The notes beneath the pieces are model-generated. The model did no database searches. It was not told where the DNA came from and saw only the letters and a program-made list of their open reading frames with translations. Below are positions 3-30,434 of a stretch of 56,550 nt of DNA, piece by piece. The position numbers were made by a program, and so were the translations under genes. This stretch comes from Acidobacteriota bacterium. GTDB lineage: Bacteria > Acidobacteriota > UBA4820 > DSQY01. Numbering within the stretch: position 1 is the first letter of the stretch; the number at the start of each line of letters is the position of its first letter. The stretch lies in contig JBBINO010000005.1 of the NCBI GenBank assembly GCA_037443845.1, positions 1 through 56,550 of the forward strand, read 5' to 3'.

Positions 3-2984
3 TATCCGGCGACGATTTCGGGCGGGCCGACCAACTACACCGTTTCCAGCGTCACGACAGACCAATTGGGCGCCGCGGACGGCGACAACATCTGGGTTGG
101 CTTTACTGGCGATGACAGCCTTACATACACCTCTTCAAACTCGAAACTCGACTGCTCGCTGAACGTGTGCGCTTCCAGCGTTGACCCGCTCTCTGGCGGT
201 TGCGACGGCGATGCCTACATGGATGACGGAGAGACGCTGAACGTGAATGTAGCCATGACAAACAGCGAAGCTTTCGACCTTCCGACAGGCTTTACAGCCC
301 AGTTAGAGGTTGATCCTGCATATCCCAATGCCAACATAACTATCGTGAACAACACCGCTGCTTGGGATGTCATTCCAGCAGGCCAGACTGCTTATTCCGC
401 TGGCGCGCCTTTTCAGGTTCGCTACACAGCCCAAGGCGGGGGGCCCATACTCTGCCATTTCAAGGTCTATAACATTCAAGCGATTGACAGTTCCTGGACG
501 GGCAACGCCGCCTGCGCGGCTAACTCTTTCACCGAAAATGCCAACGCGAATGCCACGTTGGGCACGACCTACACGAGTAACACCTTCGATGCCAGCCTAG
601 GTTGGACGGCCACGCAGGTCTCAGGCACTGGAAATTGGGCGCGGGCGACGAGCATGACCAACCCGACGATGTCGCCCTACGCCGGGGCGGGCATGGCTTA
701 CTTTAACTCCTACAGCTTCGCATCGGGCACCCAGTCGCGGCTCGCGACGGGAAGCTTCAGCCTGGCGAGCGCGACACTGCCGAAAGTCAGCTTCTACATG
801 ACGCACGATTTAACCTATACCAACGACGATAATATTGCCGTTCAGGTATCTACAGACGGCGGCACCACGTGGACCACTCTCAACACCTTCCACCGCACCA
901 CGGGCGGGACGGCGGCGGGAGTTTGGCTTAATCACATGGTTGACTTGACCCCATACATCGGCCAAACAAATGTCAGCATAGGTTTCCTGGCGACGGGCGC
1001 CTACGGGGACAACATGGCGATTGACAGCGTGGTGGTCGCCAACTATACACTGGCGAACGACAACCAGGTCTGCACGACCGCGATGCCCAACATCACTTAC
1101 AACGATGGTGACTGGATGTTCGATGACAGCCACTGCAACAACTTGTCGGATTGGACGAAGTGGATACCTTCTCCAGATGCCGGGGAGTCGGGAAGCCTCA
1201 TCATCTACCTCGGCAACAGCGGAACGAACACCGCCTACAACGTGGTGGGGACGCTTACCTGCCCTTCATGCCCGTCCGGGGTGCAGATTTGCCAGAACAC
1301 CGCGAGTTACGGGAATATCCCTTATGGCACGAGTTACGTCTATGCCCCTGTTGATCACGGGTTCGAAATAGCCTTGCCGACGGGTCTCGCCTCGGGCGCC
1401 GATTTGCCTTTCGTGATGAACTTGACGGCCTCGAACAGCGGCTACACCCCGCCCACCGTCAGCACCGTCACCTCGCCGCACAATCCACAGAACACTAGGG
1501 GCGGAACAAGAACCATTCAGGGGAGCTGCACGTCTCCCTACTCGGGCGTAACCGGAACAACGACCGACGTGGCCTACGACAACTTCACTACGGCCCCAGC
1601 CACGGCAGGCTCCGGCGGGCGTTGTGGGTTTACCACCGCGTGGACGACGGCTGGCACAGTTGGCGCGAGCACCGCTGTCACGACGCCGACTGGCGACAAC
1701 TACAGCGCGCGAATAACGAACCGAACCTCGGGTGCTTACCTCTGGCGCAAGTTCGACACGACCGGCGTGGACGCCGATGTTCGGGTCCATGCTTTTCTTG
1801 ACCTTGCGGCAGCCAGCACAAACACCTTCTACATTGACTACACGCCGGACGGAACCAACTTCTACAACATCGCGAGCGGAGCGGGAGCCGGCACGGCGGC
1901 ATGGGCCAATTTCAGCGGCTCGATCTACTGGTCCATTTACAGTGGCACCGGCACGGGGTTCGGCCCGGCCGCCGCGAACGCCATCTTCAACAACACGCAA
2001 TTTGGCATCCGCTTCCGCGGCGTGGGAAGCAGCGGCTATTTTTATGTTGACGACGTCGAAGTGGACATGTACAAGTTCGTCAACCAGGCGACATCATGCA
2101 CGGGCACTTGCGCCGTTCCGAACGCCCCAACGATCAACCTGATCACGGACAACAGCGCCTGCGTGCAAGATGGCATCCATGTTTATTACACCGGTTCCCT
2201 GGGCGCGGCAAGCTACAACCTGACGAAGGACGGGACCTCCGTGGTCACCGGCTACGCCTCCGGCGCCCTCTACAATCCGGGCGATTCCAACAGCCACAGT
2301 TACACGGTGAGAGCCATAAACACTTACGGCTATTCCGATTCGCCCGCGCAGAGCTTCACTGACGCCGCGGGGACGGCCACGCCGACGATCACCGGGGGGA
2401 GCGGCCCCGGCAACACCCTCCTGACCACCGAAGCCGGCTTCGCCAGCTACCAGTGGTACAAAGATGGGTCAGCCATTTCGGGCGCCAACGCCAATACTTA
2501 CACCGCCAGCGCCCCGGCCGACTGCGGCAGCCATAACTATACGGTCGCCTATTCGAGCGGCGCCTGCTCCAATCTGTCGGCGGCGCACAACGTCAATATC
2601 ACGACGGGGTGCGGCACCGTTCCCCTGCCCGTCCCCTACAGCGTGACGCCGACGAAGATCACAAAGGCCACGAGCAGCAACTTGACGTGGGATGTGGCGC
2701 ACTGCGCCTCGACCAACTACCACGTCATTTACGGCTGGGGCAGCACGATGGGCAGCTCGCCGGTGGTGGTTGGCGGGCAGTGCGCGCTTGGAACCACGGG
2801 CACCGCGACGTGGACGCCGCCCGATCCGTCATCGGACTCATCGCATTACCTCTGGTTCTTCGTCGTCGGCGACGACGGCGCGACCACGGAGGGCCCGTGG
2901 GGCTTGACGACGGAGGGCACAACGCCGAGCGGCGTCTGCGGCATGACCACCAAGAACAACACGGGAACGTGCGGCACGCCGTAA
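3..2984 (+). CDS. Large extracellular Cys/Thr/Gly-rich multidomain protein, 5'-truncated: repeated beta-sandwich plus MAM/cleaved-adhesin-like jelly-roll modules, FN3/Ig-like domains and a conserved 120-aa C-terminal module
   Basis: The frame is open from base 3 (YPATISGGPTNY...), so the start lies outside the window. Jelly-roll-type motifs VSTDGGTTW and DNMAIDSV / FYVDDVEV; Ig-like YQWYKDG. The C-terminus PLPVPYSVTP...GTCGTP is shared with 9632..15076. Confidence 0.8.
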   Translation, partial: YPATISGGPTNYTVSSVTTDQLGAADGDNIWVGFTGDDSLTYTSSNSKLDCSLNVCASSVDPLSGGCDGDAYMDDGETLNVNVAMTNSEAFDLPTGFTAQLEVDPAYPNANITIVNNTAAWDVIPAGQTAYSAGAPFQVRYTAQGGGPILCHFKVYNIQAIDSSWTGNAACAANSFTENANANATLGTTYTSNTFDASLGWTATQVSGTGNWARATSMTNPTMSPYAGAGMAYFNSYSFASGTQSRLATGSFSLASATLPKVSFYMTHDLTYTNDDNIAVQVSTDGGTTWTTLNTFHRTTGGTAAGVWLNHMVDLTPYIGQTNVSIGFLATGAYGDNMAIDSVVVANYTLANDNQVCTTAMPNITYNDGDWMFDDSHCNNLSDWTKWIPSPDAGESGSLIIYLGNSGTNTAYNVVGTLTCPSCPSGVQICQNTASYGNIPYGTSYVYAPVDHGFEIALPTGLASGADLPFVMNLTASNSGYTPPTVSTVTSPHNPQNTRGGTRTIQGSCTSPYSGVTGTTTDVAYDNFTTAPATAGSGGRCGFTTAWTTAGTVGASTAVTTPTGDNYSARITNRTSGAYLWRKFDTTGVDADVRVHAFLDLAAASTNTFYIDYTPDGTNFYNIASGAGAGTAAWANFSGSIYWSIYSGTGTGFGPAAANAIFNNTQFGIRFRGVGSSGYFYVDDVEVDMYKFVNQATSCTGTCAVPNAPTINLITDNSACVQDGIHVYYTGSLGAASYNLTKDGTSVVTGYASGALYNPGDSNSHSYTVRAINTYGYSDSPAQSFTDAAGTATPTITGGSGPGNTLLTTEAGFASYQWYKDGSAISGANANTYTASAPADCGSHNYTVAYSSGACSNLSAAHNVNITTGCGTVPLPVPYSVTPTKITKATSSNLTWDVAHCASTNYHVIYGWGSTMGSSPVVVGGQCALGTTGTATWTPPDPSSDSSHYLWFFVVGDDGATTEGPWGLTTEGTTPSGVCGMTTKNNTGTCGTP

Positions 2985-3035
2985 CTTTCATAGGCTTTGC
3001 AATCAAACGGGCGGGGAGCCTTCCCCGCCCGTTTT
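2622..3035 (+). repeat. Copy 1 of a direct repeat: C-terminal module coding sequence plus terminator
   Basis: 2622..2984 aligns without gaps to 14714..15076 (24 mismatches in 363 nt by manual count). The terminator stem cgggcgggga...tccccgcccg recurs at the same 12,092-bp offset. Confidence 0.95.
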
Positions 3036-3039
3036 CTTT
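3005..3039 (+). terminator. Rho-independent terminator
   Basis: aaacgggcgggga-gcct-tccccgcccgtttt followed by ctttc, about 20 nt after the stop codon. Confidence 0.85.
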
Positions 3040-3139
3040 CTGTATGAAAGGCGCGCTGCGCGGCGCCACGGGGGTGCCTCTTTGTCTCTTCCCCTCTCGC
3101 GTGGTTAAATAACGGTGCCCGGAGAGGGCCGTGAGGTGA

Positions 3140-4990
3140 GTGATGAGAAGGTGCCGCATGACCGGCGGGGTTTCTTCAGTGCTTCTTCTCCTATTGTTAA
3201 GCATGGGAGCCTGCGGAAATCGAGATGCGAAGCAAACTAAGGAAGCGCCGAAAAGGCGTAGCGAAACCAGCGTGTATCCTGCATTTCGCCCGAGCGGGGC
3301 GCCCTCTCTTCTCCTGGTCACGATTGACACGTGGCGCTGGGACTACGTTGGCGCCTCGGGCAGCGGCAAGGTCGCGACGCCGGCGCTTGACCGGCTGGCC
3401 CGCGAAGGGGCTTACGAGCCGGAGTGCGAGACGCCCTGCCCGCTGACGACGCCGGCCCACGCCACGATCATGACGGGCCTCTGGCCGATACATCATAGGG
3501 TCCTGGATTGTATCAGCTACACCCTTCCCCAAAGCCTACATACGCTGGCGGAGGCTTTTCAGGCGGACGGCTACGCGACAGCGGCTTTCGTCTCGAGCCT
3601 GAGCCTTGACCGCAGGTTTAAGTTGGACCGGGGATTTTCGGCCTATGATGAAGGCGCCATGGCATTTGGAGGGGGGGAGAGTTCGCGCGATGGGAATAGC
3701 ACTACTGAATCGGCGATGGCGTTTATAAGCGGGCGGAAGCCGGATGAACCACTTTTTCTGTGGGCTCACTACTACGACCTCCATCTTCCCTATCGGCCGA
3801 GGCCCGATTTCGACCCCCGCTATCCGGGAAACCCCTATGCCGCCGAGACCGCCTTCGTGGACGGCCAGATCGCCCGCCTTGTTTCTTATTTGGCAAACGA
3901 CAAGGGGCGGAACTGGAGGATCATCGTCGTCGGCGACCACGGCGAGGGGCTCGGTGACCACCACGAGATGGGCCACGGCATGGCGCTCTATCGCTCGACG
4001 CTTCACGTGCCCTTAATACTCTGGCCCAAGCCCGAAAGGCCGCTGGCGCACCCAAGGCCGTGGCGGCTGGAGGACATCGACCCGACCGTGCGCGACTGGT
4101 TCGGACTTTCGGCGGCGGGCCCTATGGACGGCGAAGACCTTTTTTCGAGTGGCCGAGCGGACCGCCCGCTTCCCTCTTTCACGATTCAGCCCTCCGTTCA
4201 ATTCGCGGTGAACCCCTGCCTCGGCTTGCGCGAGGGCAGATGGATGTACATGCGGCACGGCGTGGAAGAGCTCTATGACCTGAGCGCCGACCCCGGTGAA
4301 ACAGAGGATCTGAGCGACAACCCGAAAGAGAAGGACCCACTTGCCGGGATGCGCTCGAGGTGCAGCGCCATGCTTGCGCTCTCCGCGATCCAGCGGGCCG
4401 CCGAGAATCCATCCAGCCCCTCGCCGAAGGAACTGCAGGGCTTGCAGGGCCTCGGCTACATAGGAATACCGGTCTCGAATATGGCGGCGCTCCAGCGCGC
4501 CGACATCAGAATCGTCTGTGACCACGAAGCCGCCATCGAGCGGGCCAAAAGGGAGTACGCGCGAACCCATTCACCCCAACCCATGCGCGACGCCTACGAA
4601 GCACTGCTCCGAAAATATCCCAGAGCCGTGGGATACATGAAGGATTACGGAGAGCTCCTGATCAATCTGAGGGACATCGGCCGTGCGCTAGAGGTCTACA
4701 GCCGTACGGTCCAGCTCAATCCGGACGACCTGGAGAGCTTGGCGAATCTGGGAGGGCTCTATCTGGCGAAGGGACGGCCGGAGAAGGCAAAGGAAGTCTT
4801 CGAACTCGTCCTCTCTAAGAACGACGCTGATCCCGTGGCCCACAAGAACCTCGGGATCATCTACGCCAACTTTCTGAACGACCCGGCAAAGGCGGTGGCT
4901 CACTACAAGCGCTACCTGGAGCTGGGGCCGGACTCAGACGCCAATATGGTGCGGCAGTACATCAGCCGCGTGGAGAACGGCGGGCATTAG
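3140..4990 (+). CDS. Sulfatase-like (alkaline phosphatase superfamily) lipoprotein with C-terminal TPRs
   Basis: Motifs LVTIDTWRWD, PLTTPAHATIMTG, HYYDLHLPY, VVGDHGEGLGDH and ELYDLSADPGE; TPR-like helices (SLANLGGLYL, AHKNLGIIY); lipobox-like LLSMGAC. The true start is possibly ATG 3158. Confidence 0.85.
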   Translation: MMRRCRMTGGVSSVLLLLLLSMGACGNRDAKQTKEAPKRRSETSVYPAFRPSGAPSLLLVTIDTWRWDYVGASGSGKVATPALDRLAREGAYEPECETPCPLTTPAHATIMTGLWPIHHRVLDCISYTLPQSLHTLAEAFQADGYATAAFVSSLSLDRRFKLDRGFSAYDEGAMAFGGGESSRDGNSTTESAMAFISGRKPDEPLFLWAHYYDLHLPYRPRPDFDPRYPGNPYAAETAFVDGQIARLVSYLANDKGRNWRIIVVGDHGEGLGDHHEMGHGMALYRSTLHVPLILWPKPERPLAHPRPWRLEDIDPTVRDWFGLSAAGPMDGEDLFSSGRADRPLPSFTIQPSVQFAVNPCLGLREGRWMYMRHGVEELYDLSADPGETEDLSDNPKEKDPLAGMRSRCSAMLALSAIQRAAENPSSPSPKELQGLQGLGYIGIPVSNMAALQRADIRIVCDHEAAIERAKREYARTHSPQPMRDAYEALLRKYPRAVGYMKDYGELLINLRDIGRALEVYSRTVQLNPDDLESLANLGGLYLAKGRPEKAKEVFELVLSKNDADPVAHKNLGIIYANFLNDPAKAVAHYKRYLELGPDSDANMVRQYISRVENGGH

Positions 4991-5034
4991 GCTCGCTCGC
5001 CAGGACCGCGCCACGACGTTCACGCGCGGCGCCG

Positions 5035-6681
5035 ATGCTTCCGCAAGAGGGAAGAGTGGGCAAAAAAACGCCAAGAGAGAAGAAGAGGGGCGCCGGGGCC
5101 GAGAAGAGCCGCAACGGCGCAAAGGATGGTGCTTCCCTCCTCGGGCGGGGCGCGCGGCGCTTCCGGTGGCTCTTTCTGGCCGTGGTGGCGTTCGCGATCG
5201 CCGTGGCACTCACCCATCTGCTTTTCGGCATCATCGTGAACGACGAAGGCGTCACCACGATGGGGGCGTGGCGAATCGTGCAGGGAGAGCTTCCCTACAG
5301 GGACTTCTTCTCCATCATCACCCCCTTCTCCTTCTACTACCTGGCCTTCTTTTTCAAGGCAGGCGGTATTTCGATCTTGACGGAACGGGTCGCTGGCGCT
5401 CTTCTGGGCGTACTGCTGGTGGTCCTGACGGCCAGGCTTTCCACGCGGTACATACCGAGCCCATTTTTCGCGGCCTTGCCCGTGGCCATCCTTTGCGCTT
5501 CGGGGGTGAGCCTCTGGCCTTTTCCAAGCCACCATTGGCTGGCCAGCGTGTTGGTGCTCGGCTCTCTGCTCTGCGCGGAGCGCGGTCTCGATTCCGGGGT
5601 GTCGGTATGGTCCGCGGCGGCGGGGGGGCTGGGTGCGCTGGCGTTTTGGAGCTTGCAGGACCAGGGAGCCTACCTGTGGCTGGGCGTGGCGGTTGTTCTG
5701 GTTCCGTTCCTAAAAAAGGATCGGCGCAAGCAGACCATTGCTGGTTGGTTCGCCGGCGGGGCAGCGGTTACGCTCCTCTTCCTCCCGCTTGTCTTCAAGG
5801 CCGGCTTTTCGGCGATATGGTATGACCTAGTTGTATACGGCATGACGGCCTACTGCGAAGCAAACACCGGCGGTTGGTACACGACGATCAAGGAGATGGT
5901 CTCGGTTTGGACTTCCGGCGGGTGGTCTCAGGCACCCTTCTACATGGGCAACGTCCTCGTCACATCGGTGGTGACCATTCTCATTCCGCACCTCTCCCTT
6001 CCCGTCATCGCGCTTGGCTTATGGAAGAAGTGGGGAGACAGAGCACGGCTGGCCCTTTTGGGTGCCGGCTGTCTCTCCTTCGTAGCCACCGCCTTTCACA
6101 GATGGGCCGGATTGAACTTCCAGTGGGCGCAAGCGGTGCCGGCCGTAACTGTGGCGTGGGGGCTCTGGGTATGGCACACGAAGGCCGCAAGGGGCCGAAG
6201 GTGGATTCCTGCCGCCATCACCGCGGTATTGCTGGCCTCCTTCACCTTTTATGGCGCCCAGAGGATGCTTGCAGTATTCGACGCGGCCCGCGTTCACAAG
6301 GTCTCTGCTTCCGCGGGGAGCCTCTACACCAACAACCCCTTTGAAGCACGCTTCGTTCAAGAGACGCTCGACCAGATCGAAAACCGCGTCGAGCCGAAAG
6401 AACCGTTTTTGACAACCGGCCTGCCCTTCTTGAACTTTTGGACGCTAAGGCCCAGCCCTGTTCCCTATGACTGGTTCATGCCGCCGGAGGCGACGACTCC
6501 GAGCCAGACGAAAGAGGTTATGAAGATTCTTGACGAGCAGAAGGTCCAATGGATCGTCACGACTCGGCAGTTCGAATCGTCCGCCCAGCCTTTTTCCGAG
6601 TACCTCAAATCACACTACACACGTACTTGGGAAAACCCCGCCTGCGGCCTCTGGCATCGCAACGAGGCCGAGCCTCAATGA
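5035..6681 (+). CDS. Polytopic membrane protein, GT-C (ArnT/PMT-like) glycosyltransferase-like
   Basis: About 10-12 hydrophobic segments. After TM1 the loop reads NDEG...GELPYRDFF...TP, typical of GT-C family members, and there is a soluble C-terminal domain. Confidence 0.65.
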   Translation: MLPQEGRVGKKTPREKKRGAGAEKSRNGAKDGASLLGRGARRFRWLFLAVVAFAIAVALTHLLFGIIVNDEGVTTMGAWRIVQGELPYRDFFSIITPFSFYYLAFFFKAGGISILTERVAGALLGVLLVVLTARLSTRYIPSPFFAALPVAILCASGVSLWPFPSHHWLASVLVLGSLLCAERGLDSGVSVWSAAAGGLGALAFWSLQDQGAYLWLGVAVVLVPFLKKDRRKQTIAGWFAGGAAVTLLFLPLVFKAGFSAIWYDLVVYGMTAYCEANTGGWYTTIKEMVSVWTSGGWSQAPFYMGNVLVTSVVTILIPHLSLPVIALGLWKKWGDRARLALLGAGCLSFVATAFHRWAGLNFQWAQAVPAVTVAWGLWVWHTKAARGRRWIPAAITAVLLASFTFYGAQRMLAVFDAARVHKVSASAGSLYTNNPFEARFVQETLDQIENRVEPKEPFLTTGLPFLNFWTLRPSPVPYDWFMPPEATTPSQTKEVMKILDEQKVQWIVTTRQFESSAQPFSEYLKSHYTRTWENPACGLWHRNEAEPQ

Positions 6682-6714
6682 AAGGCGGCTGGGAACAGGC
6701 GGCGAACTCCTCGC

Positions 6715-8358
6715 CTACTTTCCGCAATTTTCAGAGATCAACGCCCGATTTTTCTCGAATACTCCAAGGGCCTCTCTGAAAGCCGAACAGTCCCTCTCGA
6801 CTTGAGCCGCGACGCTGGTCCTGTCGGCGTAAATTTCGGCGAATTTTTTTCTCGTGGCCGGGTCCTTCAGAAAAGGATGCTCGCTCTGGTCCTGCGTCCA
6901 CTCGTCGAGCAATACCTTCACGTCCCGCTTGGATTTGGATTCGAGCGTCGCCCTGTACTGCGAGATCAGGCGGCATAGATCGGCCTTTATCTGCGGGGAA
7001 TCGGCCAGCGGGGACTGGAGCAGGTGGATCGCCCCTTCGGCCAGCTTGGAGGGAAATTCGCCGTCGCCCCTTCGGTCGCGTCCCAGAATATCCCTGTATC
7101 CGTAACCCACGCCCAGGTCCAGCAGGGGAGGGGCCGTCACCAGGCAGTTGTCCAGAACGTCCACGTTTCCCCTGTCGTACAGGTAGCCCGAAAAGAGCAG
7201 CAGGTTGAAAAAGGTTTCCAGCTGTTGGGGATTGAGCGGGTTGAAACGCTGGATGTCGGGCTTGAGCAAGACGCCCCCCCCGTAGAGGCTGGGGCCGTCC
7301 TCGGAGTCCAGGCGTGAGCCGTCGGGCAGGTAGACGCGCTCCCTGTGGCCGTATGGGGTGGCCGATACGGCCAGAGGATGAAACGGGGCGAGGTCGACCG
7401 GGAAGGGATAGCGCCTCAGGTCCTCCATCATGACGAAAAGCGGCGCTTTCCTCTGGGCGATTCGGGAGGAGTTGAGGAGGTCGTACAGGACTTCCAGGTT
7501 GGTTCTCGGCGAGCTGTCCCAGTCGTGGGAAATGACAAGGTCGGCCCCGTTGAAGTCGGACTGCTGGTAGTAGGCTGTGCTTCCGGGCGCTTCGTCCCTG
7601 GGCACGCTGACCAGCATGTGAATGCGGGCGCGCGTCTCTCTCACCCGGAAGGTGAAATCCGCGCTGAATCCGGGTGAGACGTGAAAGCGCCTCACGGCCG
7701 ACAAGTACCAGGAGATGAAGATTTCGGGATAAGAGCGCAGCGCCTTGGCATCCTTCGAGGAGAGCGCCTCCGCCCAGGACTCGTCGAACCCTGTGTGCTT
7801 CATGGGTGCCATGGCCACCGTGACGCCGGAGCACATGCCGCCCCGTTCCATGGTTCTCAGCAGGGCCTCGATGCGAACGGGGGCGCTCTGGTCGATTTCG
7901 GTGAAGGTGTAGGAGGCCTCCCTGAGACGGTTCGGGCCGTAGAGGAAGACCAGCGGGGCGAGGTGAGACCCTGACCCCGGATAAAGCACGTTGATAGTAT
8001 CCTTCTTCCAGTCGAGCGCGCTCCAAAGCGACCAGAAGGCCCTGTGGTTTCTGATATCGTTCAAATAGTAATAGAGGATTTCGAGCGTCTGGCGGGCGTG
8101 GGCCTCCCTTTTCTGAGAGGCCAGCGCGGCCTTTTCAATCGCGATGTACCGCCTCAGGTCGGAATCAAGCTTCGTGAATGGGCTGGGTGTGGGACCGGAA
8201 TCCCCAAGGCATACGATGGAAAGGGAAAAGAGAAAGAGAATGAAAGCCCTGCTGCTGCAACGAGGGCGCGTGGCTGGTGTCTTGCTCCAAAGAAGGCTTC
8301 GGCGCATCCGTTGGCTCCTTGGCGGCCATTGCCGCCTCATAATAAACGAGGAGGGCAA
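6715..8358 (-). CDS. Hypothetical exported protein with a possible Rossmann/SAM-methyltransferase-like core
   Basis: N-terminal hydrophobic stretch (AFILFLFSLSIVCLG), then NVLYPGSGSH...YTFTEID...ADLVISHD. The start codon is uncertain. Confidence 0.55.
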   Translation of the reverse strand: MPSSFIMRRQWPPRSQRMRRSLLWSKTPATRPRCSSRAFILFLFSLSIVCLGDSGPTPSPFTKLDSDLRRYIAIEKAALASQKREAHARQTLEILYYYLNDIRNHRAFWSLWSALDWKKDTINVLYPGSGSHLAPLVFLYGPNRLREASYTFTEIDQSAPVRIEALLRTMERGGMCSGVTVAMAPMKHTGFDESWAEALSSKDAKALRSYPEIFISWYLSAVRRFHVSPGFSADFTFRVRETRARIHMLVSVPRDEAPGSTAYYQQSDFNGADLVISHDWDSSPRTNLEVLYDLLNSSRIAQRKAPLFVMMEDLRRYPFPVDLAPFHPLAVSATPYGHRERVYLPDGSRLDSEDGPSLYGGGVLLKPDIQRFNPLNPQQLETFFNLLLFSGYLYDRGNVDVLDNCLVTAPPLLDLGVGYGYRDILGRDRRGDGEFPSKLAEGAIHLLQSPLADSPQIKADLCRLISQYRATLESKSKRDVKVLLDEWTQDQSEHPFLKDPATRKKFAEIYADRTSVAAQVERDCSAFREALGVFEKNRALISENCGK

Positions 8359-8435
8359 TTCCGGCGATTTGTAATGTTATCACAAGCGCTTGCTTTTTGA
8401 GGGAAACGGCCCTATCTTACTCTATCGGAGGCCGC

Positions 8436-8855
8436 ATGAGCCGAACGCTTTTCTTGCAAGCTCGGTCGCTTTGGAATCTCATGCTGTGCCTCGTCTTTTT
8501 GGGATGCGCCGCCTTCCCCCACAGCCTCGCTCAAAATGGCCCTCCAGAATCGGGCATCGCCGGCATTGTGCTGAAGGGCCCGATGTGCCCGGGCCCGGCC
8601 CGCTCGGACAGGCCGTGCCCTGACAAGCCGGTGAGCGGGACTTTCCAAGTATTGGGACAAGACGGGAACATGGCGGCGGCTTTTCAGTCCGATGCCCAAG
8701 GCCGCTTCAAGGTCTCTCTGGCGCCGGGGCACTACACCGTTTTGCCCGCAGGCTTGCCCGCGGGGCGCAATCCGCTTGGAGACTCGGCGAAGGTGACGGT
8801 TGTCAGCGGGGACTACGTGCAGGTCGTCCTGCATTGGGACACGGGGATGCGATGA
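8436..8855 (+). CDS. Small exported protein, carboxypeptidase-regulatory-like (prealbumin-fold) domain
   Basis: GGAGG precedes ATG 8436; signal peptide; SGIAGIVLKGPMCP...SDAQGRFKVSLAPGHYTV. Confidence 0.7.
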   Translation: MSRTLFLQARSLWNLMLCLVFLGCAAFPHSLAQNGPPESGIAGIVLKGPMCPGPARSDRPCPDKPVSGTFQVLGQDGNMAAAFQSDAQGRFKVSLAPGHYTVLPAGLPAGRNPLGDSAKVTVVSGDYVQVVLHWDTGMR

Positions 8856-9406
8856 AATCCCTTCGATTCGGGGAATCGTCAGAAGGTCCGGGGCCTGCTC
8901 CAGCTGGACGGAGCGTTTCCTGCCGTCAGCGCCAAGATGCCGCTTTCGAATGTCTGAGAATACCGCTTCTCCTCTTGGTTATCGCCTTCACATGTCTTTC
9001 GGCGTTTGGCCAAGAGGTCGTCGTCTTCAAGGATCACAGGTCGCTGGTCGTCTCCGCCCACCGCCAATCCGGCGCGTGGACCTACCTCAACCTGGATGGC
9101 GGCGAGATGGCCGTCATGACTTCCAGCATCTCGGAGGTTCGCAACGAAGGGCCCGCTGCGGCAGAGGCGGCGCAGGCCGCGAAGGCGGTGGTCACGGACG
9201 CGGCGCAAGCGCAGGAAGAGGTGATGGCCGACAAGCCGCAAGAGGCTGGCTATTCCTATGCTCCGAGGGAGCCTGCTAGCACGTCAGTGCAAGAGCCGGC
9301 GCGACCTCCTTTCAACCCGGCGGCATCTCCCTTCCGGCCGGTTGGCATGTCAAGGACAGCTCCTCTTGGAATGACGCCCATGGCACCAGGCGGCCAGAAA
9401 CGCTGA
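8852..9406 (+). CDS. Hypothetical exported protein with a low-complexity Ala/Pro tail
   Basis: ATGA overlap with the upstream stop; hydrophobic segment LLLLVIAFTCLSAFG; small beta domain (VVVFKDHRSLVV...). Confidence 0.55.
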   Translation: MKSLRFGESSEGPGPAPAGRSVSCRQRQDAAFECLRIPLLLLVIAFTCLSAFGQEVVVFKDHRSLVVSAHRQSGAWTYLNLDGGEMAVMTSSISEVRNEGPAAAEAAQAAKAVVTDAAQAQEEVMADKPQEAGYSYAPREPASTSVQEPARPPFNPAASPFRPVGMSRTAPLGMTPMAPGGQKR

Positions 9407-9511
9407 GTTTGTCGGGTTCGGCTCGCCGAGTCCCCGGCAATCGCGCCAGCTCGCCGAAGTTTGTTCTTGCGCCGAACGTGCCCTGCAGAGATTTGAGCAG
9501 GCGAGCCGCGC

Positions 9512-9540
9512 TTGCAAATCTCCGCTCTTGAAGGTATAAG
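9512..9540 (+). promoter_or_regulatory. Putative sigma70 promoter for the metallopeptidase gene
   Basis: TTGCAA-N17-TATAAG, about 90 nt upstream of the GGGAGG RBS and ATG 9632. Confidence 0.45.
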
Positions 9541-9631
9541 ATTGGGTGCGGTCGGCTTCTGGACCGTCGTCGGTCGCTGTTCTGCCAAAGTTGTGTCACG
9601 ATCTTGAGGACGAACAAACTGGGAGGTTGCC

Positions 9632-12600
9632 ATGAACGCAAGGTGGTGGAAGATTGTCGTAGTGTTTGGTTGCGCCGTGTTGTGCGCGTCAATAATTGTC
9701 GTGCCTTCGTTTGCTCAGGCTGTGAAGAAAAGGGCTTCCGGCTTGGATGACGTGGCCTTTTCAAAGGCGATCACCCAGGCGCCCACTCAGGTACAGCTTC
9801 TGGACGAAGCCAGAGCCGTAGCAGGCAGCCTTCCGGCCGCCGAGGCCTATGACAAGTTTCTCTATGATAACGGCGGCGGCCAATGGACGTTGCTCTTCGA
9901 TAGGGTCACAGGCGAGCCGGCGTTGATTGAGGGCGAGGGCATTCCCTGGATTCCGGGAACGGGGTGGCGGAATTCGGTAACCGGAAGGGATCTCGGCCTT
10001 CCAGCCGGCATCAGAGGACGGGACGTTCCACTGGCGGTGGTCGCCACCAAGGCGAGGGAATTCATCAAAGCGAATCCGGGGCTGTTCGGGACGAAGGTTG
10101 ACGAGCTGACCTTGAACCAAGCAGCCTCCGGGCCGGTCGCCGATTACCTCTACTTTCTTGAGTTCGACGTAGTACATCAAGGCGTGCCCGTCGAGAACGC
10201 GCGCGTCGTCTTTCGAATCAACCACGGCAATCTCATTCAGTTCGGGCAGGAATACATAAGCCCCGCCCTTCAAAACATCAGTGCTGCGCCGGCCATCACG
10301 CTGGACACGGCCTGGGAGATCGTCAAGTCTTTCGTTGCCGACATTCCCTCGCAAAGTGCGGACACCGTCGTCGAGCCAGGCCGCCTCTTGATAATTCCGG
10401 TTGGCACGCCACAGGCGCTTTCGGGAGCGCAGGTTGAACCGGGAACGGGGCTGGATTATCGGCTCGTATGGATCCTTTCCTTCCGCAGAGACGGCGTGCC
10501 AGGGACGTGGGAAGCGCGTGTGGACGCCCAGAGCGGCGAGATGCTCTCCTTCCGTGATTCCAACGAGTACGGCAGTATTCATGGCGGGGTCTATACGCAG
10601 GACCGGCCAGTGCCGGAAAGCGACAAGCCGATGCCCTACGCCAATTATAGCGGAACCACGACCTATGCGGACGCGGCAGGCGCGTTTCCCGGCACGAGCG
10701 GAACAACGACGCTCAACGGAAAGTACGTCACGATAGCCGATAGCTGCGGCAGCATCAGTGCCTCGACGACGACTGGTGACTTGAACCTTGGGATGAGTAC
10801 CGGAATTGACTGTGCGACGCCCGGCACCGGTGGAGCAGGCAATACGCACGCTGCTAGGACTCAATATTACAACGTCACTCTTTTGAAGATGAAAGCGTTG
10901 AACTACCTTCCGTCGAACACATGGTTGCAGGGCAAGGTGACTGATAATGTGAACGGAACCACGACGACCTGCAACGCTTACTGGAATGGCAGTTCACTGA
11001 ATTTCTTCCGCTCCGGCGGGGGCTGCTGGAATACCGGAGAGCTTCCCGGCGTCTCGCTTCACGAATTCGGCCACGGCCTCGACGCCAACGATGGAGACGG
11101 CAGCAGCCCCGATAACGGGACCGGCGAAACCTACGGGGACACTACGGCGTTGCTGCAAACCCACCTCTCTTGCCTGGGCAACGGGTTTATGGGAGTGAAC
11201 TGCACCGGGTATGGCGACACCTGCGTTGCATGCACGGGCGTTCGCGACCTAGATTACGGCAAGCACGTTCGAAACCTGCCCGCGATCTCAACGATGCTCA
11301 ACGCGACGACCGGCTTCCATTGTCAAACCAGTACCAGCTACAGAGGGCCGTGCGGTTACGAAGGCCACTGTGAATCAGCCATTTCATCGCAGGCGATTTA
11401 TGATTTGGCCGCCCGCGACCTCGTCACCTGGGGAATGGATGCCGCCACGGCCTGGCAAACGGTGGACCGGCTCTGGTATTTGAGCCGCTCCACGGCGACC
11501 GCGGCTTACGGCTGCAATACCTCGACGCTGGTAACGACTGGCTGCAACGCCGGCAACCTCTATATCGTATTCAGGGCGGTAGATGACGCCGACGGGAACC
11601 TCGCGAACGGCACGCCCCACGCCTCCGCGATTTATGCCGCGTTCAACCGCCACAATATCGCCTGCTCGACGACGGTCAATACCGATGACGGATCCTGCGG
11701 GACGATTCCAGCGCCGATCCTGAACGCCACTGCCGCGAACGGGCAGGTGCTGGTCAATTGGAGCGCCTCGGTGGGGGCCGCTTCGTACAACGTGCTGAGA
11801 AACGAGGTCGGCTGTGACGCCGGCTATACTAAAGTGGCCAACGTAGCCGTCACGACCTATACCGACTCGACGGTGGTCAATGGAGTGAACTATTCGTACC
11901 GCATCCAACCAGTTGGCAGCAACGCCAGTTGTTTCGGCGCGTTGAGCAACTGCAGCCAGGCCACCCCGCTCTCATGCACGCCGCCGAACGCCCCGTCGGG
12001 CCTCTCGGCGACCCCCAACGGGAATTACAGGATTGACTTGAGCTGGAACGCCGTTTCGGGGACAATCTCTTACAACATTTACAGGCGGACTGCCACTAGC
12101 GGTTATTCTCTGTTGACGGAAGTCTCGAGCGCATTGACGGCTTATAGCGACGTTGCCGTCAGCGGCGGGGTTACTTACTATTACGTGATTCGATCTTTTT
12201 CAACCTGCGAGTCGGTCAATTCGGCCGAAGCTTCAGCGACGGCTGCGGGTACCTGCAACCTCTCTCCAACATTCTCGGGTATAGCATCCGCCATGAACGC
12301 GCTTGCCAGCAACTGCGGGAACGTGCTAACATGGGCCGCAGGTACTTCAAATTGCGGCGGAACGCTCACCTACGGCGTTTACCGTTCGACGGTTTCAGGT
12401 TTCAATCCGTCGCCCGCAAATTCGATTGTTCAAGGCCTGTCTGGCTTGACCTACACCGATACGGGCGTAATTTTCGGAACGACATATTACTACGCCGTAA
12501 GGGCGTTCGATTCAATCAGCGGCATCGGTGACGCCAATGCGGTGACGCTGGGCGCCTCTCCTACCGGGCCTGCAACTACGATCTACCAACAGACGTTTGA

Positions 12601-15076
12601 GTCGAGCAGTGACTGGGTCGCCACAAAGGGAACTCCAGCCGCGACGACTGGAGATTTCATCCGCGGCCAACCCAACGCCACGGTTGGGAACCTCGGAGAG
12701 CCCTGCCAGCCTGGAAGCGGGCATAACAGCCCCAATTGCCTATACACCGCGGCCAACCCAGACCCGAGTCAAGCCGGTGTTGACGACGTGGACGGCGGCG
12801 AAGTGATCGCCACGTCGCCAGCCTTCAACGGCACCGGTTTCCCCAACGTCCGATTGGACATGTGGCGCTGGTTTGTCAACGAATACACCGATGACGCCGG
12901 TGACTACTACAAGCTCGAAGCTTCCAACGACGGAGGTTCCACCTGGACGCTGATAGATGAGATTCCCGATTCCGTCTCCATCAAGAATGGAGCGGCGATC
13001 AACCAGTGGAACAATTCCGTCATCAACCTGGAAGGTTTTCTCGCTTTGACCAGCAACATGAAGGTTCGCGTCCGAGTGGCCGATGGAACGGCGACGGGTG
13101 GCCTGATTGAATGCGCTCTTGACGACATCTACGTGAAGGGCTATCCGGCTTGCACCGGCTGTACGCCTACCGCCGCGCCGGGTGCACCAAGTCTAACGGC
13201 GCCATCAGCGAACAAGGTTGACCTATCATGGAGCGCCGTTTCCGGCGCCGCGACCTACGCTGTTTTTCGCACCTTCGGATCCTGTCCAGGCACCGGTTTG
13301 GTGCTGATAGCTGGTAACATTGCGGGAACGAACTATAGCGACACTTCGGTTTCCGGCGGGCAAACGTATTCCTATTACTTGAAGGCTTACACCTCCAACT
13401 ACTGCGAATCCAGCTTTTCTCCATGCGCACAGATAGCCACGACGGGGCTTTGCACCCAGCCTCCCGATTTCGCCGGCGTGACGTCGGTTTCAAGCGCGTT
13501 TGCATCCACTTGCGGGATAGCCCTCTCCTGGACCGCCGCCACTCCGCGTTGCGGGACATCGGTGACCTACAACGTCTACCGGTCTTCATCGGCGTCATTC
13601 CTTCCCGGGCCCAAGACGCTCATCGCAAAGTGCGTGAGCGGCACCAGTTATACCGACAGCGCGGGACTGGCATACGGCGTTTCCTACTACTACGTTGTCA
13701 GGGCCGAAGACAATTCCGGAACGGGGAGCGGCCCCTGCGGTGGCAATGAAGATGCCAACCTGGTGATCAAGAGCAGTGGCCCGAGCGGAGCCTATCAGAC
13801 TGGAGGCCAGATATTCTTCGACAACTTTGAGTCGGGAACGGGGACGAGAGGATGGGACACGGGCTACTTTGTAGGGAACGCGAATGATTGGCGCGGCGTA
13901 ATGGCCTGCACCCCGAACCAATCGTCGTCTCACATTTTTCGCTGGGGCGGGAGTACGTGCGTCGGGAACTACCAGGCGAGCGTCGCCTCTTTGGCCAGCC
14001 CCAGGCCAAACATATACGGGTTGGACATCCCCTTTGACGCAACGAACGTGCAGTTGACTTTCTACCAGCGAGGGAACTTTGCAGCCGGCGATGGCGCTCT
14101 CCTTCTCATGCAGAAACAGCCCACGGCCACCTACTACTTCATCCCCTCCTCGGCGATTTCCGGCCGGACGTACAACGGAATTACAGGCACCAATAATGTC
14201 TTGGGCGCCAACTATCCTTGCTGGAACGGAAATTTCAATTCGCAGATGTATTCAACGACGGTCAACCTGGACGCCGCGTGTTCCAACGTGGACGGCAAGC
14301 CGTGCGCCGGGAGCACGCTCGCCATAGCCTTTACGGGCAGCTCTGATGCGACGACACAGGCCGCGGGCTGGTTCCTCGACGACGTGCAAGTAACAGCAAA
14401 TTACGGCGCCACTTCGTGCGCCACCTCCGGGTGTGCAATGGTTGCCGACGTAACACCGAACTCGGCTTCCGCGGCCGTCGGCCAGGACGTCTTGTTATCC
14501 ATCCAGCATACGGCAGGCGTTTCGCCGTATCATTACCAGTGGACGGAGGATGGCGTGGACATCGCGGGGGCTGTTGGCGCCTACTTGCCAGTCAACAAGG
14601 CGCTGGCCGGGAGCCACACCTACAATTGCAAAGTGACAGATTCCAGCGGACTTTGCGCCAATGTTACGGACGCGCAGGCTACCACGGTTACTTGGAGTGC
14701 CGCCGCGCCAACTCCTTTGCCGGTCCCTTACAGTGTGACGCCGACGAAGATCACGAAGGACGCCAGCAGCAACTTGACGTGGGATGCGACGGACTGCGCA
14801 TCGACGAACTACCACGTCATTTACGGCTGGGGCAGCACGATGGGCAGCTCGCCGGTGGTGGTTGGCGGGCAGTGCGCGCTTGGAACCACGGGCACCGCGA
14901 CGTGGACGCCGCCCGATCCGTCCAACGACTCCTCGCATTACCTCTGGTTCTTCGTCGTCGGCGACGACGGCGCAACCACGGAGGGCCCGTGGGGTTTGAC
15001 GACGGAGGGCACGACGCCGAGCGGCGTTTGCGGCATGACCACCAAGAACAACACGGGAACGTGCGGCACGCCGTAG
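9632..15076 (+). CDS. Giant secreted zinc metallopeptidase (M4/M36-like, FTP/PepSY-like propeptide) with FN3 and jelly-roll repeats and the conserved C-terminal module
   Basis: Signal peptide; propeptide motifs (HQGVPVENARV, WEARVDAQSGE); CNAYWNG; LHEFGHG followed by GETYGD (HExxH...E); FN3 motifs (LSWNAVSG..YNIYR..YYYVIR); C-terminus shared with gene 3..2984. Confidence 0.85.
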   Translation: MNARWWKIVVVFGCAVLCASIIVVPSFAQAVKKRASGLDDVAFSKAITQAPTQVQLLDEARAVAGSLPAAEAYDKFLYDNGGGQWTLLFDRVTGEPALIEGEGIPWIPGTGWRNSVTGRDLGLPAGIRGRDVPLAVVATKAREFIKANPGLFGTKVDELTLNQAASGPVADYLYFLEFDVVHQGVPVENARVVFRINHGNLIQFGQEYISPALQNISAAPAITLDTAWEIVKSFVADIPSQSADTVVEPGRLLIIPVGTPQALSGAQVEPGTGLDYRLVWILSFRRDGVPGTWEARVDAQSGEMLSFRDSNEYGSIHGGVYTQDRPVPESDKPMPYANYSGTTTYADAAGAFPGTSGTTTLNGKYVTIADSCGSISASTTTGDLNLGMSTGIDCATPGTGGAGNTHAARTQYYNVTLLKMKALNYLPSNTWLQGKVTDNVNGTTTTCNAYWNGSSLNFFRSGGGCWNTGELPGVSLHEFGHGLDANDGDGSSPDNGTGETYGDTTALLQTHLSCLGNGFMGVNCTGYGDTCVACTGVRDLDYGKHVRNLPAISTMLNATTGFHCQTSTSYRGPCGYEGHCESAISSQAIYDLAARDLVTWGMDAATAWQTVDRLWYLSRSTATAAYGCNTSTLVTTGCNAGNLYIVFRAVDDADGNLANGTPHASAIYAAFNRHNIACSTTVNTDDGSCGTIPAPILNATAANGQVLVNWSASVGAASYNVLRNEVGCDAGYTKVANVAVTTYTDSTVVNGVNYSYRIQPVGSNASCFGALSNCSQATPLSCTPPNAPSGLSATPNGNYRIDLSWNAVSGTISYNIYRRTATSGYSLLTEVSSALTAYSDVAVSGGVTYYYVIRSFSTCESVNSAEASATAAGTCNLSPTFSGIASAMNALASNCGNVLTWAAGTSNCGGTLTYGVYRSTVSGFNPSPANSIVQGLSGLTYTDTGVIFGTTYYYAVRAFDSISGIGDANAVTLGASPTGPATTIYQQTFESSSDWVATKGTPAATTGDFIRGQPNATVGNLGEPCQPGSGHNSPNCLYTAANPDPSQAGVDDVDGGEVIATSPAFNGTGFPNVRLDMWRWFVNEYTDDAGDYYKLEASNDGGSTWTLIDEIPDSVSIKNGAAINQWNNSVINLEGFLALTSNMKVRVRVADGTATGGLIECALDDIYVKGYPACTGCTPTAAPGAPSLTAPSANKVDLSWSAVSGAATYAVFRTFGSCPGTGLVLIAGNIAGTNYSDTSVSGGQTYSYYLKAYTSNYCESSFSPCAQIATTGLCTQPPDFAGVTSVSSAFASTCGIALSWTAATPRCGTSVTYNVYRSSSASFLPGPKTLIAKCVSGTSYTDSAGLAYGVSYYYVVRAEDNSGTGSGPCGGNEDANLVIKSSGPSGAYQTGGQIFFDNFESGTGTRGWDTGYFVGNANDWRGVMACTPNQSSSHIFRWGGSTCVGNYQASVASLASPRPNIYGLDIPFDATNVQLTFYQRGNFAAGDGALLLMQKQPTATYYFIPSSAISGRTYNGITGTNNVLGANYPCWNGNFNSQMYSTTVNLDAACSNVDGKPCAGSTLAIAFTGSSDATTQAAGWFLDDVQVTANYGATSCATSGCAMVADVTPNSASAAVGQDVLLSIQHTAGVSPYHYQWTEDGVDIAGAVGAYLPVNKALAGSHTYNCKVTDSSGLCANVTDAQATTVTWSAAAPTPLPVPYSVTPTKITKDASSNLTWDATDCASTNYHVIYGWGSTMGSSPVVVGGQCALGTTGTATWTPPDPSNDSSHYLWFFVVGDDGATTEGPWGLTTEGTTPSGVCGMTTKNNTGTCGTP

Positions 15077-15129
15077 CCTATTGAAGCCTTAGATTCAGGC
15101 GGGCGGGGAGAAATCCCCGCCCGTTTTTT
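14714..15129 (+). repeat. Copy 2 of the C-terminal module plus terminator repeat
   Basis: Matches 2622..3035 and includes a 116-nt perfectly identical tract. Confidence 0.95.
15100..15129 (+). terminator. Rho-independent terminator
   Basis: cgggcgggga-gaaa-tccccgcccg followed by tttttt. Confidence 0.9.
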
Positions 15130-15147
15130 GTGGCGAAATTTGCAGGA

Positions 15148-15175
15148 GCAAGGGCCGGCGCAAGCCGGCCCTTGC
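15148..15175 (-). terminator. Hairpin just after the stop of the convergent asparaginase-like gene
   Basis: gcaagggccggc-gcaa-gccggcccttgc, a perfect 12-bp stem with a weak U-tract. Confidence 0.5.
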
Positions 15176-15187
15176 CGTCAGGTGGCG

Positions 15188-16819
15188 CTAGGCGCCTTTG
15201 AGAGCGCGGATCACTTCGCCCAGCGCATCGTTGAACGGGCGGCCGGCGAAGGGGTCCTGAGGGAGAATCCTGAGCGGGCGGTCCTTGATGCCGAGCACCC
15301 TGCGGAAGGTGTCGAGGCCGTGGGCCCTCCGCATCGAAACGCCGGAAAGAAAGGCGGCTACGTAGAGCCTCCAGCGGTCCACCCCCGCCTGCGCAGCGGC
15401 CGCCTCAACCTCCTGGCAGTGGCCGAGGAGGTAGCTCAGCTTCACTTGCGCGTCGGCGAGCGGCAGGTCGCCGCACGGAAAGCCGCCCGCTTCGAGAAGG
15501 CTCAGGCCCGTCTCGTACTCCACGTCGTAGGGCTCCAGCGGCACTTGCGAGGTGATGGCGACCAGCTTTCCTTGGGCCACCGCCTCCTTCAGCGCCGGCA
15601 GAACCGAGCGGCTCGAATCCTCCCTCACGTTGGCGTTGCCTCCGCCGTACCCGGCGAAGATCGCCCCTTTGCCGCACGCCGCGAACTGGGAGGCGTACTG
15701 CTCGGTGGTGAAAAGAGGGTTGGAGAAAACCGGCCTGACCGTCAGATCGAAAGCCGTGTCGGCGCGCGCCACGCCGATCGCGGAGATCGCCTCTGCGATT
15801 TCCGCCCACTCCTCGTAGGAAACGTTCGAGGAGTCGAGCGAGAAGAGGTCGTGGCGGTGGGCGTTTGAAAAGAGGCCCGAGAGGGGATCGTTGAGGTACT
15901 TCCAGACGAAATCGCCCGTCGGCTTCAGCGCCCCGAGGTCGGTCGAATCCCTCGCCGACTCGATCGTCCCGCCCGTCCGAATCAGGTGGAGGTCCCTCAG
16001 CTTCTGGTCCTCGTAGGGGATCAGAACCCAGTCGGAGCGCATGGCCATGATCCCGTCTACGCCGGCGCTGGCGGCCACTTTCCCGTCGAAGGCGTCGGCG
16101 TCCCACTTCCGGTACTTGGTCAGCCTCCCCGAGAAGACGTTCTTCCCGTTGTTGAAAACGGCGAAAAGCCGCGCCGGCCTCAGACGGTTCAAGAGGTAAA
16201 CGGCGGTCTTCAGGTTGCCCAATGCGTCAGAGCCCGAGAAGTATCCTTCAAGCGGGACCTGTGAGCCGGTTACGGCCACGTTGGCGGTGAGGTTCTTCAA
16301 GGCGTAGCGAAGGTAGGCGAGCCCCCAGGCCATCGTATCGGTTCCGTGGGTCACCAGGATGGCGGTGGTGTTGCGGACCCGCCCGTACTTGTGAAGCCCC
16401 GAGGAGACGAGCGCCGCCAGAGGCGCGTAGTTGCCGTGTGCCCCCATCTCCTCGCGGAAGAGGAATCCTTCGGGATCAACCTCGAGCCGCTTCATGTCCT
16501 CACCGACCGTTTCCGAGAGGAAGGCGTCGCGGAGCGCCCTGGCATCGCAGGAGCCGGAAATAAGGATGACGGGCGTCTTGGGAAGGTGGCGCCTCACGTA
16601 AAAAAGCAGGGAGACCCCTTCCCGGCCGCCCTGGGTGAACTCTATCGCCACGACGGCGGCGTCGGGCTTGAATGAGTCGAGGGCCGCCTGGGCCTCTTCG
16701 GGGGCGCGGGCGAACCGGAGATGCCAGTCGGGATGGGCCGAGAGGAAATAGGTTTCGACCTCTTTTGCGTAGCCGTCACATTCCGGGTCGGCAACCAGTA
16801 TCTTGAACCGCCTCTGCAT
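15188..16819 (-). CDS. Pseudo-receiver (REC-like) domain fused to an asparaginase/glutaminase-fold protein with permuted motif order
   Basis: REC-like KILVAD...KPDAAVVAIEF...TPVILISG. Asparaginase motifs HGTDT (aa158), TGSQVP, TGGTI (aa282), LDSSN, GYGGGN and ITSQVP. Confidence 0.85.
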   Translation of the reverse strand: MQRRFKILVADPECDGYAKEVETYFLSAHPDWHLRFARAPEEAQAALDSFKPDAAVVAIEFTQGGREGVSLLFYVRRHLPKTPVILISGSCDARALRDAFLSETVGEDMKRLEVDPEGFLFREEMGAHGNYAPLAALVSSGLHKYGRVRNTTAILVTHGTDTMAWGLAYLRYALKNLTANVAVTGSQVPLEGYFSGSDALGNLKTAVYLLNRLRPARLFAVFNNGKNVFSGRLTKYRKWDADAFDGKVAASAGVDGIMAMRSDWVLIPYEDQKLRDLHLIRTGGTIESARDSTDLGALKPTGDFVWKYLNDPLSGLFSNAHRHDLFSLDSSNVSYEEWAEIAEAISAIGVARADTAFDLTVRPVFSNPLFTTEQYASQFAACGKGAIFAGYGGGNANVREDSSRSVLPALKEAVAQGKLVAITSQVPLEPYDVEYETGLSLLEAGGFPCGDLPLADAQVKLSYLLGHCQEVEAAAAQAGVDRWRLYVAAFLSGVSMRRAHGLDTFRRVLGIKDRPLRILPQDPFAGRPFNDALGEVIRALKGA

Positions 16820-30205: not shown

Positions 30206-30434
30206 GACGATCTCCTTTCATTCCGCGTCGCGGCGCCCATCGCCTCCGGGCACCCGCCCCGCGTCTCCACCGCCCATTATAGCCACCATGGGGCCGGTAT
30301 GGCGAATGGCGATTGCGTCCGAGAAGGGTTGGATGTATGATTCGGACGAGGCGGTCGAGAGGTGTTGCCATCAATGCCGCAAAGTTCGTTTTTCATCCGT
30401 GGTCCAATTGCGCGGCGGGCCGAAGGGGGTTGGG

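Follow-up and report, generated by a model that had tools for sequence, protein, structure and literature searches.

Why do two genes with different bodies end in almost the same 120 residues, and what could such an ending be good for? The question arises from a stretch of 56,550 nt of the acidobacterial contig JBBINO010000005.1 (assembly GCA_037443845.1), which we refer to as the window, where the C-terminal module of one long gene (gene 1) recurs at an offset of 12,092 bp at the end of another (gene 2). The analyses described here place this repeat in an extensive family of end domains, about 115-130 aa long and so far without annotation, that derive from the FN3 (fibronectin type III) domain and are confined, in some lineages of the Acidobacteriota, to the last position of Sec-exported multidomain proteins.

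When positions 2500-3100 were compared with 14592-15192, the segments 2622-2984 and 14714-15076 aligned without a gap, and the alignment runs from a PLPVP linker past the terminator. The copies differ in 24 of 363 nt (93.4% identity, counted by script), with 15 of the differing bases in synonymous codons, and in 6 of 120 residues at the protein level (95% identity); the longest identical stretch measures 116 nt. A preliminary description, made from the sequence by eye, had arrived at exactly the same counts manually. It had also placed an abrupt end of the similarity at the Pro linker, with differing bodies upstream, and when the 30-300 nt preceding the junction are compared without gaps, identity is only 27-32%, so that similarity indeed ends at the linker. 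The stop codons differ (TAA versus TAG), and the spacers of about 23 nt behind them are roughly half identical. The hairpins that follow have identical stems and differing loops, none of 200 shuffles folded as well in either case, and each is succeeded by a U-run; alignment and folding thus bear out that identical terminator stems sit at the same offset behind a diverged spacer. The module, designated type A, has four cysteines (residues 28, 54, 106 and 117) and no hydrophobic tail. As described before, there is no transmembrane helix or PEP-CTERM-like ending; the tails close with C-G-T-P or C-P. The features concerned are the following.

3-2984, plus strand: gene 1, a Thr/Ser/Gly/Asn-rich multidomain protein ending in a type A domain (993 aa visible; the 5' end is lost at the contig start)
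2622-2981, plus strand: first copy of the Cys-clasped, FN3-like end domain of type A (120 aa, ending in ...CGTP; stop codon 2982-2984)
2715-2830, plus strand: 116-nt core identical to 14807-14922, a candidate gene-conversion tract
3005-3045, plus strand: intrinsic terminator 1, a hairpin with a 13-bp stem (3005-3034) and a U-rich run (-26.1 kcal/mol, z -6.2)
9632-15076, plus strand: gene 2, with a HExxH metalloprotease-like body and a type A end (1814 aa)
14714-15073, plus strand: second copy of the type A end domain (95% identity with the first; stop codon 15074-15076)
15097-15137, plus strand: intrinsic terminator 2, with the stems of terminator 1, a different loop and a U-run (-26.4 kcal/mol, z -3.95)

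The genome to which the window belongs (G000; 2.73 Mb in 155 contigs, 61.8% G+C, 97.8% complete) proved rich in this module. A single-sequence search yielded 11 genuine type A copies, all at the extreme C-terminus of open reading frames (ORFs) of 503-1822 aa; a twelfth match contained stops and was discarded as spurious. With a profile built from 170 public tails, 12 ORFs were found, including additional ones on contigs C37 and C6, and a divergent one on C3 was missed, which brings type A to 12 clear members and one divergent member (13 ORFs). The copy on contig C12 shares 77% protein identity and is followed by a different terminator. All-against-all comparison of the ORFs neighbouring tail genes revealed a second C-terminal module, type B, in 8 further ORFs, where it ends 0-4 residues before the stop, mostly with Cys-Pro. 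Profile-profile alignment (hhalign; probability 97.2%, E 3.6e-11, 109 columns) indicates that types A and B are homologous, type A having an extra Cys-bounded loop at its end. The possibility that just the two copies in the window exist, considered in the preliminary description, is thereby removed.

All 21 copies occupy the extreme C-terminus of mutually unrelated cargoes. Those of type A are a HExxH protease-like protein, an MtrC/MtrF-like multihaem cytochrome, a Sortilin/BNR-TIG protein, an FG-GAP plus LamG protein, and PKD and CarboxypepD_reg proteins; those of type B are two S8 subtilases, an M14 carboxypeptidase, three Kelch propellers and two RCC1 propellers. A crude script recognized signal-peptide-like N-termini in 15 of the 21, and of the remaining six, two run into a contig end. 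At four loci (C22, C12, C14 and C54) A and B genes are immediate neighbours, compared with a chance expectation of about 0.2 pairs (a back-of-the-envelope figure for 21 genes among some 2400).

Several details of these loci deserve mention in their own right. In the convergent A/B gene pairs on C22 and C12, one common bidirectional terminator hairpin lies between the stop codons (28163-28232 and 10410-10498, respectively). Just after the type A gene on C113, a good ribosome-binding site precedes a 35-codon ORF (L025, 5913-6020) for the Cys-containing peptide MKKSYEKPRVVYREKIEARAGSCNKADSSCTIVVS; by eye it resembles the leader-core layout of precursors of ribosomally synthesized and post-translationally modified peptides, and the contig ends 140 bp further on. 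On C80 (6431-11370, minus strand), a choice-of-anchor J protein is apparently split by a frameshift, and the frame behind the shift closes with a divergent FN3-like domain that has a pair of cysteines at its terminus (...CGPYSGPWDCYGQ). Since this end domain escapes both the A and the B profile, further subtypes probably exist.

The same picture emerges from public data. An exhaustive profile search of 1.84 billion representatives, with clusters counted at 50% identity, returned 1131 clusters at E<=1e-3, of which 597 pass a cut-off of 1e-10 and 38 one of 1e-30. When 177 of the proteins were fetched and re-scored, the domain ended within 3 residues of the protein end in 163 and within 10 residues in 172; of the five exceptions, three have the appearance of fragments caused by frameshifts. 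None of the 177 carries two copies, and the domain was never internal or tandem in this set. Matches to the A and B models (independent E value <1e-4) in the window and 34 loci from 20 genomes were likewise C-terminal in 58 of 58 ORFs. The earlier proposal of a portable C-terminal module on unrelated cargoes is thus upheld both within the genome and in many others. One type B tail, in L064 (G002:C25, 1-1641), breaks off mid-domain into unrelated sequence at a contig end, probably a chimeric end.

Type A occurs in 30 of 41 relatives (E<=1e-3) and in 65 of 401 genomes across the phylum (E<=1e-8; the tally includes the unpublished G170), with a distribution that follows families: 21/24 genomes in f1, 6/6 in f4 and 5/5 in f22, compared with 0/33 in f29, 0/15 in f5 and 0/11 in f23. 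Type B was found in 21 of the 41 relatives, reaching 31 copies in G025, a genome of 2.9 Mb. Ten of the 41 match neither type, among them G006 and G009, members of the same family at 99-100% completeness. In a search with a single tail, the closest named match outside was a contig of one metagenome-assembled genome of a Candidatus Aminicenantes bacterium, with a tail 86% identical; a Thermoanaerobaculaceae bacterium is also among the named carriers, and the nearest clusters in the ESM Atlas are hypothetical Acidobacteriota proteins without Pfam families. Literature searches, which covered titles and the openings of abstracts and left supplements and subscription journals outside their scope, found nothing bearing on such a domain.

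What kind of domain is it? No Pfam or NCBIfam model matches it. The Pfam fn3 model (PF00041, gathering threshold 25 bits) has no match at E<=10 in 11 type A tails, and its match to one type B tail is below threshold (20.5 bits, E 5.6e-4). An AlphaFold (AF2) model built on a 50-row alignment reached a predicted local distance difference test score (pLDDT) of 84.8 (an 11-sequence alignment gave 57 and was not used) and is all-beta, of the seven-stranded sandwich class. In the VIA comparison, all 50 top rows were FN3-type or FN3-containing chains (Z 4.8-5.6, root mean square deviation about 3 Å), aligned over 73-83 residues within model residues 5-95. Foldseek returned weak FN3 and monobody rows with a best E of 0.12 and nothing at E<=0.001 against the PDB, and the A and B profiles touch FN3 chains at E 0.03-0.2. 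The modelled domain is a strongly derived FN3 sandwich with an added tail of about 25 residues, an assignment in which the modest scores support the fold class alone.

Ordinary bacterial FN3 domains, such as those of CtXyl5A (5g56), chitinase A1 (FnIII, 1k85) and Clostridium thermocellum (Fn3-like, 3mpc), have the same fold (VIA Z 5.0-5.6 over about 76-81 residues), and the W...GY.VYRG motif seen in the internal FN3 repeats of type B proteins recurs in their end domain. They lack, however, the putatively disulfide-clasped tail of about 25 residues, the strongly conserved F-G region and the strict C-terminal position of the end domain. The domain had been announced as unrecognised, which holds for the family databases and less so for the fold; conversely, the suspicion that it might belong to a known family of FN3 domains with internal members is half right, as it is FN3-like but below Pfam thresholds and never internal.

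A conserved strand-loop of the form ...LWFLVVGDDG..TEGSWG... marks the family, as does the pattern of cysteines. Four cysteines are present in 135 of 170 tails, 1-3 residues follow the last cysteine in 161, and the terminal residue is Pro in 107, an exact Cys-Pro being the commonest ending (73 of 170). The linker upstream is Pro-rich (P makes up 16% of its residues). Because the cysteines retained by type B are mostly just the counterparts of C54 and C106 in type A, we infer the disulfide pairs C54-C106 and C28-C117, which would staple the tail to the sandwich.

How did two unrelated genes come to share the module? Within the genus, proteins homologous to gene 2 over its last 500 cargo residues end in either type A (L060, L061) or type B (L063, L065), and those from G006, G016 and G026, in which no type A was found at E<=1e-8, end in type B or in a TIG-like module. 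The latter, about 75 residues long, was observed in L070, L071 and L072 (G016:C46, G026:C63 and G006:C28, respectively) and was not found in the genome of the window. The module thus appears to move between genes by recombination. Contig C220 of G003 is syntenic with the window and encodes homologs of P0178 (66% identity) and P0179 (53% identity), two proteins encoded between genes 1 and 2. Its gene-1 homolog has kept the cargo (62.6% identity over the last 171 cargo residues) and agrees in just 42.7% of the tail, compared with 95% between the two tails of the window. On these alignments at least one of the window genes has acquired its present tail by recombination after the species split, in line with the earlier suggestion that recent duplication or conversion keeps the copies homogeneous. 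The recently copied or converted tract spans the Pro linker through the terminator; a 116-nt identical core together with a spacer far more diverged than synonymous sites is what continuing gene conversion or coding selection would produce. The window is a clean example of module exchange, in which domain and terminator apparently moved together between unrelated genes.

As for function, the reading we favour is that of a common localisation handle, to which we assign an even chance. Within it, we tentatively prefer surface retention through binding of an envelope component; recognition of the domain for passage across the outer membrane is distinctly unlikely. The protein would first be exported by Sec, and the disulfides would form in the periplasm. 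The end domain would then bind an envelope component and hold the protein on the cell surface or, alternatively, be recognised for crossing the outer membrane, while the disulfide-pinned tail and the terminal Pro could shield the C-terminus from the cell's own secreted carboxypeptidases.

This reading draws on the strict end position, the single copy per protein and some 21 cargoes that are typical of surface and secreted proteomes, as well as on the size of the family, the exchange of end modules and the four A/B neighbour pairs. That searches of the 97.8%-complete genome turned up neither exosortase nor PEP-CTERM nor T9SS CTDs is likewise counted in its favour. Characterised MtrC-type cytochromes act at the cell surface, and the MtrC-like cytochrome among the cargoes is counted toward a localisation role. 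Choice-of-anchor J domains were named by NCBIfam for preceding alternative C-terminal anchors. Of the seven ORFs in the genome that contain one, five end in type A or B, the sixth leaves its contig and the seventh is the frameshifted one. The two S8 proteins have partial, below-cut-off matches to the NCBIfam models for myxosortase-dependent and rhombosortase-dependent M36 proteins. A study on Bergeyella describes S8 peptidases that combine S8, PKD, cleaved-adhesin and choice-of-anchor J domains with the C-terminal domain (CTD) of the type IX secretion system (T9SS) (PMC11982257). Strong exosortase matches (E<=1e-20) were found in 2 of 65 type-A-positive genomes versus 84 of 336 type-A-negative ones, a tally that includes the unpublished G170 and G052; the Fisher p of about 1e-5 is overstated, related genomes not being independent. 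Finally, the genome of the window encodes two secretins, so that proteins could cross the outer membrane by a type II route.

A number of observations weigh against a localisation role. With 252 of the 401 genomes lacking both type A and a strong exosortase match, and given the kinship of the genomes, the anticorrelation is weak. Only 10 of the 75 ORFs of at least 1000 aa carry the domain, so it is no general requirement for large exported proteins in this organism. The generic FN3 fold, with its modest scores, is one that often serves as a spacer or binding module, and the end position and Cys-Pro terminus are explained equally well by a protective cap. No recurrent non-cargo neighbour family was detected at the 21 loci of the genome (within 7-8 kb) or at 20 loci of 19 other genomes, the sole non-shadow recurrence being a sirohaem-synthesis pair in three genomes of the same family. 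P0178 and P0179 were considered as partners of the domain and rejected, as their distribution does not track it: the P0178 family is present in 28 of the 41 relatives, including the two 99-100% complete genomes that match neither domain type, and P0179 in 4 of 41. The profile search thus brought the many C-terminal matches on signal-peptide cargoes that the preliminary description had anticipated, without a co-occurring gene set, and its conclusion that a cognate export or attachment machinery is implied found no support, as there was no linked gene and no match to a T9SS CTD, PorV, SprA, exosortase or PEP-CTERM in the genome.

Nearly as likely as the localisation handle is a stabilising cap or an ordinary binding module, that is, a terminal FN3 domain that guards the C-terminus or binds a substrate or polymer and has no part in sorting or anchoring. 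The fold and the weak FN3 sequence similarity speak for this explanation, and so does the lack of any machinery or linked gene in the neighbourhood analyses. Self-protection is plausible in view of the cell's own secreted M14 carboxypeptidase, its many proteases and five alpha-2-macroglobulin-like paralogs (about 2000 aa, with the C-terminal 130 residues in common), and the Cys-Pro terminus would fit protection from exopeptidases. A cap, however, has no obvious need for a strand-loop motif that is 50-60% conserved across unrelated cargoes, nor for two or three interchangeable types on homologous cargo, and it leaves unexplained the association with choice-of-anchor J, which elsewhere belongs to architectures ending in sorting tags. 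Binding modules of the carbohydrate-binding or FN3 type, in turn, usually occur internally or in tandem as well, which is not the case in the 177 proteins inspected.

A bolder version of the localisation reading, which we regard as rather unlikely, sees in types A and B, and perhaps the TIG-like module, tags that mark cargo for a surface-display or outer-membrane export system, as yet undescribed, of non-Terriglobia Acidobacteriota such as the Aminicenantes. Such a system would take the place of exosortase/PEP-CTERM or T9SS and would recognise the clasped Cys-Pro C-terminus. The genes for its machinery would lie apart from those for the cargo and thus escape neighbourhood analysis.

Less probable still is a cleavable secretion tag in the manner of T9SS CTDs, with types A and B as two cargo classes of an undiscovered outer-membrane system that would cut at the Pro-rich linker and attach the cargo to a surface glycolipid. 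T9SS CTDs, known from the Bacteroidota, are also small beta-sandwiches that occur singly at the end of dozens of unrelated signal-peptide cargoes, and fall into two classes; the end domain is a strictly C-terminal, single-copy beta-sandwich with two homologous classes, a Pro-rich linker and tens of cargoes per genome (31 of type B in G025). Cargo architectures correspond too, as S8, PKD and cleaved-adhesin or choice-of-anchor J domains followed by a C-terminal end domain recur in the Bergeyella proteins. Sequence comparison nevertheless separates the two. The model for T9SS CTDs of type A (TIGR04183/PF18962, Por_Secre_tail) matches none of 11 tails and nothing in the whole genome, and the phylum is a different one. 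The search for T9SS core genes covered PorV and SprA. PorV has no match in the genome, its control being weakly matched in Bacteroides thetaiotaomicron, and SprA has none either, a result of little weight as the control was likewise blank everywhere. There are no linked adaptor genes of the sort that accompany T9SS cargo of type B (TIGR04131). To our knowledge, T9SS CTDs lack the four conserved cysteines and the Cys-Pro terminus, and the conserved, clasped end suggests a lasting rather than a discarded domain.

Other known systems are more distant. The tripartite tags (PEP-CTERM/exosortase, MYXO-CTERM, GlyGly-CTERM/rhombosortase and LPXTG/sortase) occupy the same position on similar cargo, including choice-of-anchor J proteins, but they are short, a motif, a transmembrane helix and a basic tail together taking up about 25-35 residues, whereas the domain studied here is a folded unit of 120 residues without a hydrophobic segment. 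Exosortase (PF09721) has no match in the genome, its control having matched; PEP_CTERM has none either, with little weight, as its control was blank everywhere. Dockerins resemble the end domain in being portable C-terminal modules on many enzymes, and a receptor domain corresponding to cohesin would be needed. Dockerins are Ca-binding helical repeats, however, while the end domain is modelled as all-beta, and no repeated receptor protein was identified. Neither Dockerin_1 nor PPC (PF04151) of Pfam matches any of the 11 tails at E<=10. Altogether, the end domain works most like a T9SS CTD yet fails the sequence test for one, and it belongs to the FN3 fold class yet lies outside Pfam fn3.

That the repeat is an assembly artefact or a chance similarity, as considered at the outset, can practically be dismissed: Logan unitigs break around it and depth is higher in bins 2137-3204, as for any repeat, but there are 24 fixed differences, unique flanks, both copies on one 56-kb contig, a third copy in the same genome at 77% identity, hundreds of relatives in other genomes and a 715-nt contig of run X1 that bridges 14038-14752, across the second cargo/tail junction. 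All 30 bins are covered by the X1 contigs, which possibly stem from the source sample and hence are no independent support; among the X1 contig pieces shown, none spans the first junction.

The two genes themselves had been described as encoding giant secreted proteins. For gene 2 this is supported by a clear signal peptide (MNARWWKIVVVFGCAVLCASIIVVPSFAQA), while the N-terminus of gene 1 lies beyond the contig start. Pfam finds just weak MAM/Reelin-like matches in gene 1. In gene 2 the signal peptide is followed by a hint of a PepSY-like propeptide, the HExxH metalloprotease-like body, several FN3-like repeats and the type A domain; no relative of the protease body was found in the PDB by sequence. 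Three features within these genes can be located.

576-1037, plus strand: choice-of-anchor J domain (NF038128) within gene 1 (38.9 bits, cut-off 30)
9632-9721, plus strand: Sec-type signal peptide of gene 2, 30 aa ending in AQA (by eye and crude script)
11060-11074, plus strand: HEFGH zinc-binding motif, residues 477-481 of gene 2

The remainder of the window holds further genes of interest. A sulfatase domain fused to C-terminal TPR repeats is encoded at 3140-4990 and has one paralog on C10. P0178 (5035-6681), a polytopic membrane protein without a Pfam or NCBIfam match, has by eye the look of a GT-C-type glycosyltransferase, and its family is multi-copy, with five matches in the genome and ten in G003, often in tandem arrays. 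On the minus strand, two overlapping tandem thymidylate-kinase-like genes (17419-18120 and 18117-18875) are 39% identical to each other, and a tricorn-type protease with PD40, Tricorn C1/PDZ and S41 domains (26819-30205) and a type I restriction R subunit (44318-47350) were recognized. A bacterial alpha-2-macroglobulin with MG2, bait region, A2M and bMG10 domains (35677-41589) is directly followed by a PBP1C-type transglycosylase/transpeptidase (41597-44041), a classic pair, and is preceded by a 1823-aa ORF (30204-35675) whose sole Pfam trace is a sub-threshold Y_Y_Y match.

Sediments and digesters harbour Aminicenantes and related Acidobacteriota in abundance as degraders, most of them uncultured, and extracellular proteases, propeller proteins and outer-surface cytochromes are how such bacteria act on their surroundings. 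About 21 genes, roughly estimated at close to 1% of all genes in the 2.7-Mb genome, and more than 1000 public clusters end in a domain that Pfam and NCBIfam do not match, so that a curated model would improve the annotation of secretomes at once. If the domain is indeed a localisation handle, it would define a new class of cargo, point to envelope machinery and offer a portable tag for surface display.

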